DNA of 63,826 bases, the filler included, from Collodictyon triciliatum (taxonomy: Eukaryota), in assembly GCA_043381765.1 (NCBI GenBank). It is 9 parts of 9 records of this genome, joined end to end, with 100 filler letters (N's around TTAATTAATTAA, not from the genome) between each part and the next. Parts side by side here need not be neighbours in the genome. Positions count along the whole stretch, not along the records: positions 53,300 to 59,085 come from JBHJMP010000685.1; 8 more parts are not named here. One strand, written 5' to 3'. The position numbers and the translations under genes are program-made. How positions within the stretch are numbered: the stretch's first letter is position 1; each line of letters opens with the position of its first letter. The notes beneath the pieces were generated by a model. The model was given only the letters and a program-made list of their open reading frames with translations. It ran no database searches and had not been told where the DNA came from. Of this stretch, positions 53,822 to 56,797 are shown in pieces.

Positions 53822-56797
53822 TTATCCTTTTCTATCTGCAAGACTCCATAGCTGCTCCACCTCATTTTCGTGGTTCCTAGTTCATTATTATCTTACAACT
53901 ATCGATGTAATTTCAAAAAAAAAAAAAAAACTGCTACGATTCCCAGAGAAGAACTGAACATGACAATGTTTTCTTTCCATCGCGATTTTCAATCGTGGTA
54001 CCTAGTAAGCTCCAAAATCTTGGCATTGGCTCTTGTGCGCTCCATGTCGAAAATCTTTTCTAAACGCTTCTTTTCTAGCGGATCCGTCACCTAGTATAAT
54101 TGAAAGTATTACGTGAACTTGAAAGATAAACTATGAAACCCTTGCAGAGTGGTCTTGTCAGTCATACCGAGGAGGTGGGCAACATTCATTGCGTTGGGAT
54201 ATAGGGAACGGCATACCGATTTCAGCATTTGATTTCGTTGGGATTCGTTGCAGGTTTCTTGTGATATCAATCTCAAGAATTCTTCGTCATATATGCGCTT
54301 CCTGTGTCTGATATATTCACCCATCTCGCAGTTGTCAAAAACAGGAGTTATAAAGTCTGCTCCTTTTCTAGTTGACTTGGTTTCTAAAAGATAATGGGGC
54401 GCATAAGCCAAATTGTATATCAGTATTGGCGACCTCGCCATTAGCAATACGTTCGAATTGAAGCCGAAGACTGAAAAGTATACCAAGTGTTGTTGTTGGC
54501 GAGCTTTGAATATTTGGATGTACATGATTCTAGGAGAGCGAAGAGTTTATGGTATGATGCGATGTCTGGACACTCAAAACAATCATGGTATTTGTTTTTT
54601 TTTNNNNNNNNNNNNNNNNNNNNNNNNNNNNNNNNNNNNNNNNNNNNNNNNNNNNNNNNNNNNNNNNNNNNNNNNNNNNNNNNNNNNNNNNNNNNNNNNN
54701 NNNNNNNNNNNNNNNNNNNNNNNNNNNNNNNNNNNNNNNNNNNNNNNNNNNNNNNNNNNNNNNNNNNNNNNNNNNNNNNNNNNNNNNNNNNNNNNNNNNN
54801 NNNNNNNNNNNNNNNNNNNNNNNNNNNNNNNNNNNNNNNNNNNNNNNNNNNNNNNNNNNNNNNNNNNNNNNNNNNNNNNNNNNNNNNNNNNNNNNNNNNN
54901 NNNNNNNNNNNNNNNNNNNNNNNNNNNNNNNNNNNNNNNNNNNNNNNNNNNNNNNNNNNNNNNNNNNNNNNNNNNNNNNNNNNNNNNNNNNNNNNNNNNN
55001 NNNNNNNNNNNNNNNNNNNNNNNNNNNNNNNNNNNNNNNNNNNNNNNNNNNNNNNNNNNNNNNNNNNNNNNNNNNNNNNNNNNNNNNNNNNNNNNNNNNN
55101 NNNNNNNNNAAAAAATACCAATAATTAACAAATTAATATGGATATTATCGGGAAAATTTCGCATAAATAATCAAGATGCATTATCAATGAAGACTGACAG
55201 TGGAGGTTTTGAAGTGCTTTGTTTGGGGTGCCGTATCCTGCTTAAAGAAGATGATCTAATATGATCATTCTCTTTGTTTGTTTGTTTGTTTGTTTGTTTG
55301 TTTGTTTGTTTGTTTGTTTGTTTGTTTGTTTGTTTGTTTGTTTGTTTGTTTGTTTGTTTGTTTGTTTGCTTCTTTGTTTCTTTGTTAAGATGTAAATGAT
55401 ATCCATGAGCTAGGAAACGGCGAAAAGTAGTGTGATATCGATTAAAAAATCTTAACCTTGTCGGGTGCTTTAATAAAGTCTTTGGTTTGAGTGATGGGGT
55501 AGCAGACCCTCCATTTCTAGTTGTTTGTATTTATAGGTCAATCGAAAAATCGTGATTTTGTGAATTGTTCCGTGTTTTTAAAATTGAATTGAAGTGAACT
55601 ATGAGCTATAGAAAAACTCAATACTTATTGTGTGAAGGCGATAACCCTGCGTCATATTCTTTTTCTGTTGTCGGTGGAAAGTGATTCGATGTACCGAGGG
55701 TAGTTTTTGACTTGGATTTTGGAGAGGGTTTGACCAGCTGGTGGATGATTTCATCTTCCTCAAACCCATCTCGCTGATAACCATCATCTGAATCTCCACT
55801 GTATTTCTCAAAGTCGGCGTTGCTATCGTATTTAGGCTGGGTGTCTTGGTCGGTTAGGCTATCGTAAACATCAGAATACCCTTCACTTTCAAGATATAAA
55901 CCTATTGTATTTTATTCAGTAAATCGATAATAATCAGAAATACAACCAAATAAACACACATAAAAACAAAAAGAAACTGATACGAGTCTTCTTGTAATCT
56001 TTTGGAGCTTTAAAATACATTAAAGTAAATGCCATTAGCGACACTTTTATCTTTTGGTTTATCATTTTCTGTACCGATGCCAACATTCCCACCATCTTGC
56101 ACAAAATTGAAAGGGATAATAAAAAGAAAAATAACCATTTTATGTACCGATATAAGGTGTTATCAAAAAATCAAAGGAAATATGCCATTTTTTCAAATTC
56201 AATTTTGCCTAATATAGAGGGGAAATAAATGAAATAATAGAACATCAGTCGCCAATATATTTTGATAAGGTCATTAACATTACGCTACAGAAATTACCTT
56301 CTTTTTCTAATTCATGAGCAACGATGGCCCTGAGAATATGTATACGTGAGACATAAAAAGCGATTAAAATTGGATGTTTCTTTCTTTGCGAGAATATATC
56401 ATACATTAAGAAATGATGCGATTATAAGCACCAAACTTTTAAAGGAAATTTATTTATGCCAACATTCCCACCATCTTGCACAAAATTGAAAGGAAGAATA
56501 AAATAAAAAAAAAGAAAGGAAATTAATTTATGCACAAACCCTAAATCGATAGCGGGAATATGTGGGTCCTTCTTCAACCCATTTACAATTTTCTTGAGAT
56601 TGTTCGAGACTATGTCAGCTTTAGTTGCCAAATGGCGTTTCTTTTTTATTTAAAAATTAAAAAAGAGATTAATCTTGGCCGTGTTTATATTCATGTATTT
56701 ATTTGATTGTCATTATATTTCTTCCTTTGATTTCTCTTTGATTTTTAGCCGGATACCTATATTTTACAAAAAAAAAAAAAAAAAAAAAAAAATTTTT

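Follow-up and report, generated by a model that had tools for sequence, protein, structure and literature searches.

According to the accessible parts of one account of L1-mediated insertion (PMC2912911), the commonest form of L1 is the 5'-truncated copy, the target-site duplications (TSDs) of L1 and Alu measure about 15 bp, and nicking is preferred at TTTT/AA. The same source describes truncated Alu, SVA and mRNA copies as arising in trans. TSDs are usually shorter than 20 nt, and what fixes the 5' truncation of LINEs and the position of the top-strand nick is still open, as stated in the available sections of PMC7617806. For a zebrafish LINE, the accessible text of PMC2666801 gives microhomology at about half of the 5' junctions. 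In NF1, six independent insertions within 1.5 kb have been described, together with a poly(T)-only insertion (available part of PMC3219598). In the literature searched, made up mostly of journals that can be read without subscription, no account was found of fixed-start tails in a protist as short as those described here.

Two short inserts of this kind were studied in a window of 63,826 nucleotides from Collodictyon triciliatum (assembly GCA_043381765.1). The window, that is, the whole stretch of DNA that was analysed, consists of short scaffolds joined via spacers, and its source is an AT-rich, microsatellite-rich and intron-rich eukaryote. A 12-nt TTAA-repeat spacer between runs of N (at 15392, 20782, 30387 and six more places) is an assembly artefact of scaffold joining. 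Both inserts lie on the scaffold at 53300-59085. With good probability, each represents the 3' end of a longer poly(A) retroelement that lost its 5' part on insertion, and an L1-type reverse transcriptase is the likely agent; this reading is based on their anatomy, their intronic position, the dispersed family to which they belong, the staggered 5' ends of its members and the existence of longer copies.

Four public sequencing runs (X1-X4; three studies, seven rows listed) match part of 55380-56780. Their contigs were aligned to 55390-56765 at 80% likeness and gave 4 (X1), 24 (X2), 25 (X3) and 6 (X4) records, 59 altogether; 56488-56531 was masked as repeat during this alignment. X1 and X4 are DNA runs, and X2 and X3 are treated as RNA-like, their RNA status being a guess. 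X2 and X3 (organisms A and B) each differ from the window at host-exon positions 55766 and 55841, and these shared differences indicate that their sources are close relatives and not the same strain as the window. The features of the locus are as follows.

55625..55901, minus strand: host exon, no Pfam match
55902..56297, minus strand: host intron with insert 1, 396 nt, GT..AG; joint seen in X2 and X3
56063..56078, plus strand: 5' copy of TSD 1, 16 bp; 18 bp with two mismatches if begun at 56061
56079..56135, plus strand: insert 1, made of a 36-nt core (56079-56114), 3 nt, AATAAA (56118-23) and an A-rich tail; antisense to the host gene
56136..56151, plus strand: 3' copy of TSD 1, one mismatch
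56298..56329, minus strand: host exon between both introns, 32 nt, implied by X3 record 12
56330..56539, minus strand: host intron with insert 2, 210 nt, GT..AG; placed from X3 record 12, the intron ends and the open frame
56441..56459, plus strand: 5' copy of TSD 2, 17 bp ending in AT, or 19 bp counting GC at 56458-59 as target
56458..56514, plus strand: insert 2, made of the identical 36-nt core, AATAAA (56497-502) and an A-rich tail; antisense to the host gene
56515..56533, plus strand: 3' copy of TSD 2, one mismatch; stops 6 nt inside the 5' splice site of the host intron

The first-pass annotation had reported an identical 38-nt core occurring twice between unrelated flanking repeats, and both points hold. 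The 38-mer is exact at 56077-56114 and 56456-56493, which are its sole matches in the window at up to three mismatches, and 100 shuffles gave none; the flanking repeats are 16 and 19 bp long with one mismatch each. The copies lie 379 bp apart on the same strand, with the same start and a core identical at 36/36 positions. The 57-nt inserts differ at six positions, every one of them after 56114, and AATAAA stands at an equal offset in both. The tails do differ, as had been stated, but the matching offset and the small number of differences show them to be homologous.

Direct-repeat spacings are 73 for copy 1 and 74 for copy 2. The segment 55390-56765 holds two repeats of at least 16 bp with at most one mismatch and a spacing of 40-120, while among 500 Markov-resampled sequences the mean number was 0.004, and none held two. 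The TSDs, 16 and 17-19 bp long, are unrelated to each other, lie above chance and fall within what is expected of target-primed reverse transcription (TPRT; about 7-20 bp, site-specific). An A-rich tail stands immediately 5' of the 3' TSD in both inserts, which is the position of the tail in TPRT products. Comparison of the 100-nt flanks gave local scores of 22 and 18, reached by 39 and 131 of 1000 shuffles, and no extended likeness. Since the flanks of the copies are unlike each other, tandem duplication is excluded, and the earlier view of two insertions, each with its own TSD, is borne out. Insert 1 is matched with zero differences by X1 record 2 (55926-56144) and X4 record 20 (56081-56231), the coverage by the runs being of insert 1 only. 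X1 and X4 come from two studies, at most one of them being the assembly source, so insert 1 is not an assembly error, a possibility that had been raised in advance. Across the four sparsely covering runs, no joint skipping 73 or 74 nt, i.e., no empty allele, was seen.

Contigs from X2 and X3 skip 55517-55624 and 55902-56297, and the CT..AC ends of the skipped stretches indicate that a minus-strand gene is spliced here. X3 record 12, with 33 record letters between 55899 and 56539, is the basis for the exon and intron that follow upstream in the gene. Exons 56540-56642, 56298-56329, 55625-55901 and 55457-55516 join into a single stop-free frame of 156 codons. The inserts lie in two consecutive introns of this one gene, in agreement with the earlier statement that a single gene had been hit twice, and the host is predicted to remove them via normal splicing. 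A duplicated host exon, the alternative that the first-pass annotation had set against its own reading, was rejected because both inserts are in spliced-out introns. An introner was rejected as well: no GT..AG phase excises either insert precisely, and both sit inside larger introns (396 and 210 nt). A U-rich, Sm-like stretch on the minus strand of the insert had suggested a spliced leader or an snRNA; this candidate was discarded, as the T-run would sit 5' and the copies run into long foreign flanks on that side.

The run records place the inserts in a dispersed family. Less than 95% likeness to the window was found in 22 of 24 records of X2, 24 of 25 of X3 and 5 of 6 of X4 (51/59 over X1-X4). 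The 16 diverged records listed out of these 51 (five in X2, six in X3, five in X4) all lie on 56078-56135 and are versions from other loci, with 3-8 differences in 35-51 letters, about 2-5 of which are expected in the tail. X2 record 7 is near-identical (three differences in 47 letters, two of which probably fall on tail letters peculiar to copy 1). Although records are not equal to loci, each loose end behind the tail has a sequence of its own, which shows that the family is dispersed, and the claim of a multi-copy family is thus sustained. X1, with roughly one third of the stretch covered, contains no further copy, which makes a very high copy number less likely, allowing for a filter that drops records.

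Mean depth over 56080-56125 is 749 (X2), 1112 (X3) and 14 (X4), against 2-5.6 on host sequence; in the RNA-like X2 and X3 the depth of the core exceeds that of the host exons (3.7-5.6) by a factor of 150-280. As these depths are summed contigs over all copies, in runs with a guessed RNA status, they speak for the abundance of the core and not for its source. Bin arithmetic gives a depth of about 108 (X2) and 154 (X3) at 56079, a drop that a variant letter at 56080 could cause. The high core depth in X2 and X3 is not accounted for by dead copies alone.

Foreign flanks were found before 56078/79 (X4 record 19), before 56089 (X4 record 22) and before 56096 (a single contig in X2 and another in X3). 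The X4 copy at 56089 and the X3 copy at 56096 are each preceded by letters that recur after the tail, which identifies them as shorter inserts with their own TSDs. The 5' ends are therefore staggered, with starts at 56078/9, 56089 and 56096 besides longer members, as in truncated copies. Four X2 contigs and six plus two X3 contigs have loose ends before 56079/81, and their consensuses all end in AACCAAA. The last nine letters of these upstream ends are common to X2 and X3; the X3 pair shows an agreement of 0.92 over 30 letters, and two X3 consensuses agree, by eye, at about 22 of 28 letters. Consensuses that are related but differ in this way imply an upstream continuation at two or more diverged loci and a unit at least about 28 nt longer than the inserts. 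Upstream parent sequence is visible over just 30 loose letters per run consensus. At 56079 itself, consensus agreement is just 0.57 and 0.70, and some of the contigs may start exactly there.

With starts at 56089 and 56096 and with contigs continuing 5' of 56079 in two runs, the unit-length micro-SINE template of the first-pass annotation is not supported. Its point that a shared 5' end speaks against random truncation survives in part, since X4 record 19 starts at 56078/79 too, but other starts exist. The window resolves two junctions and the runs four; of these six, three fall at 56078/79 and two at 56096. The window pair was picked for its common start, and the recurrent start therefore hints only weakly at preferred stops; if truncation were uniform across the 21 positions that can be observed, its chance would be, by our own estimate, about 1 in 20. 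The common start is probably not pure chance, given one more copy elsewhere (X4 record 19). Three copies at one start base would fit random truncation poorly, and G56079 seems to be a preferred stopping point.

Longer copies carry A-A-A before G56079, where the window copies carry AT. The AT shared by the two inserts is consequently not in the longer copies, and microhomology goes down to 0 nt at copy 1 and to at most 2 nt (GC) at copy 2; of the 2-4 nt previously proposed, only this GC is left. The leading AT is probably target DNA, with an element core of 36 nt counted from G56079/G56458. AT ends TSD 1, and it ends TSD 2 when GC is counted as element.

The window contains another set of short inserts, family A, on the minus strand at 7739-7790, 22562-22618, 48201-48247 and 49328-49389. 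These A-tailed inserts of 20-26 nt have up to 18 nt in common; their TSDs measure 16, 16, 13 and 18 bp, and the 5' end differs at 7739. A degenerate copy lies near 52117 (minus strand). All six TSD pairs of the window have exactly one mismatch, in a scan that allowed at most one, and the element cores have none. Age plus ascertainment may explain this.

Read on the element strand, five of the six window TSDs (56063, 56441, 7739, 22562 and 49328) end in AT with a purine next in the target, where the background frequency per position is 0.045-0.064; the motif was chosen post hoc, insert 2 was scored with its 17-bp reading, and the AT of two family A copies could be microhomology with an unseen parent. 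One of four foreign flanks in the runs ends in AT. The simplest reading, offered as a lead from the letters at the junctions, is that AT would mark the second-strand nick. At the other end, a T|A step is present at the TSD start of five of six window inserts. TTTT precedes the 5' copy of TSD 2 and provides such a step, target 2 reading TTTT|AAAG, near the TT/AAAA preference; target 1 has no T|A step unless its TSD is extended to 18 bp, at the cost of two mismatches.

By analogy with L1 biology, an endonuclease would nick the bottom strand at the T|A step, and the freed 3' end would prime cDNA synthesis on the poly(A) tail of the RNA. The second strand would then be nicked 16-19 bp away, apparently just after AT, and synthesis would stop after about 36 element bases, the end being joined with 0-2 nt of microhomology. 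The two insertion events were probably independent. The inserted copies carry no promoter, and the prediction is that they were dead on arrival. As the parent, a LINE is in our estimate roughly twice as likely as a SINE with a LINE-type tail. No reverse-transcriptase or retroelement domain was recognised by Pfam in 54 ORFs of the window (8 + 46). One frame of the core ends in QHSHHLAQN followed by TGA (56108-10 in insert 1), 7 nt before AATAAA. As a speculation, a TGA just before AATAAA in both families would fit LINE ORFs that end near the tail.

Other sources of the inserts have been weighed against truncated retroelement tails. A weaker form of the micro-SINE idea supposes a defined short template. 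Through cleavage of a longer RNA, or synthesis of a short one, polyadenylated molecules of about 36 nt plus tail would build up and each be retroposed whole. We regard this as unlikely. Three copies at three loci start at 56078/79 (two in the window and X4 record 19), and the depth of the core in X2 and X3, far above that of the host exons and of 56079, is what such an RNA would give; but these depths sum all copies from contigs of runs with guessed RNA status, and the drop at 56079 may reflect a variant at 56080. Longer and shorter copies exist, and the shortest SINE consensus given in the accessible part of the SINEBase account (PMC3531059) is 75 nt. Nor do the inserts look like a small-RNA gene. 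Pol III A and B boxes are absent from both strands at up to one mismatch from the consensus, as had been noted at the outset, and the tRNA scan gave no hit. The Rfam search of 53300-59085, which had been recommended at the outset, returned five weak matches, all far under their gathering scores; the best, mir-1993 over insert 2 (27.5 against 82 bits), was rejected as chance. Stable folding beyond shuffles was seen in none of five sequences (z from -0.11 to +1.43). Exact-pattern searches with a 25-mer and a 22-mer against metagenome contigs, and with a 20-mer and a 22-mer against viral contigs, gave no matches, an absence that concerns those collections only.

An improbable source is a cellular mRNA or gene family with high expression, its retrocopies being 5'-truncated and mobilised in trans by LINE machinery. 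AATAAA before the tail, a core frame ending in TGA 7 nt upstream of it and the high depth in RNA-like runs would suit an mRNA, and truncated mRNA retrocopies are known (available text of PMC2912911). Against this, dozens of diverged records with unrelated flanks are what a transposon family typically shows, the copies listed have 3-8 differences in 35-51 letters, and a stop near AATAAA is found in family A too. Slightly less probable still is local copying, in which one insert derives from the other, e.g., from an antisense transcript polyadenylated at the AATAAA of the first copy and re-inserted nearby. The short distance, the common strand and start and the 36/36 identity agree with it, most listed copies elsewhere being different, and had AT been copied as well, 2 or 4 nt of microhomology would result. 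On the other side, three family A inserts likewise have a TSD that ends in AT, which thus needs no copying; X2 record 7 is near-identical elsewhere, X4 record 19 has the same start at another locus, and no flank was carried over. Independent clustering is known from the accessible part of PMC3219598, and at a TSD divergence of 2 in 35 the chance of identity over 36 nt is 0.12.

With the truncated-tail reading, the inserts form a second tail family with TSDs in this genome, new in sequence, produced by an ordinary mechanism and not a new class of element. They are useful for repeat annotation, as such inserts fall below the usual masking thresholds, and their presence or absence could serve to mark differences between strains. 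Should both the recurrent start and the AT|purine nick prove to hold genome-wide, two families with fixed stops would make the question of LINE truncation testable. An unlikely extension is that this eukaryote processes its retroelement RNAs into defined, polyadenylated 3' fragments present in large amounts (36 nt for this family and 18 nt for family A), which a LINE enzyme would insert as stereotyped units with a second nick after AT. If true, this would be a general route to fixed-length promoterless micro-retroposons, operating on two unrelated families in one genome, and fragment processing would be a natural model for where LINE copies truncate.

Several other features were observed in the window. 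At 53868-54006, a 14-bp direct repeat (one mismatch) surrounds 111 nt with an internal run of 16 A, a possible retro-insertion or composite, and at 54188-54244 a 13-bp direct repeat (one mismatch) surrounds 31 nt in an apparent minus-strand reading frame. The minus strand of 60600-61380 carries a divergent actin-family ORF (Pfam Actin, 9e-45); in a comparison with proteins of 143-455 aa it has a single match at E<=1e-20, with 35% identity. A large glycine-rich protein without a Pfam match is encoded at 35235-38027 and 38872-40074 (plus strand); look-alikes of its 930-aa ORF are unnamed, mostly eukaryotic clusters of low recognition value, with G8 and DUF8003 as weak leads. A 39-nt tandem repeat of about 20 copies at 62320-63360 (minus strand) encodes a 13-residue E/K-rich coiled-coil unit.

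Among the known systems, the SINEs of SINEBase resemble the inserts in being short, non-coding, tailed and multi-copy, and both would need a LINE reverse transcriptase; they differ, as far as the accessible text of PMC3531059 goes, in that the insert has no internal Pol III promoter or RNA-gene head, measures 36 nt against a minimum of 75 nt and is not a fixed unit. The insert itself thus shows neither the promoter nor the tRNA, 7SL or 5S head of a SINE, and regarding a defined, re-amplified unit, its start recurs in three copies but longer and shorter copies occur too, in contigs that cannot show RNA ends. SINE and mRNA retrocopies mobilised by L1 (Alu, SVA, processed pseudogenes) have the same junction anatomy and long TSDs, and their weaker dependence on microhomology (available part of PMC2912911) fits the 0-2 nt seen here. 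A head, body or source gene of that kind was not found here, and 36 nt plus about 28 nt upstream cannot separate such copies from a LINE tail. Family A is unrelated in sequence and has a core half as long; it has in common with the present inserts their ultra-short, A-tailed form, the long TSDs, ending in AT in the window, the recurrent start and a TGA shortly before AATAAA (4 nt there, 7 nt in the present core). From the 5'-truncated, dead-on-arrival insertions that L1-clade LINEs make through TPRT, their putative counterparts, the inserts differ in that they contain just 36 bases of the element, start recurrently at one position and apparently have their second nick at AT|purine. They share with them AATAAA and an A tail, TSDs of 16-19 bp and a T|A step, clear at target 2 (accessible parts of PMC2912911 and PMC7617806), as well as variable 5' ends, 0-2 nt of microhomology and local clustering (available part of PMC3219598).
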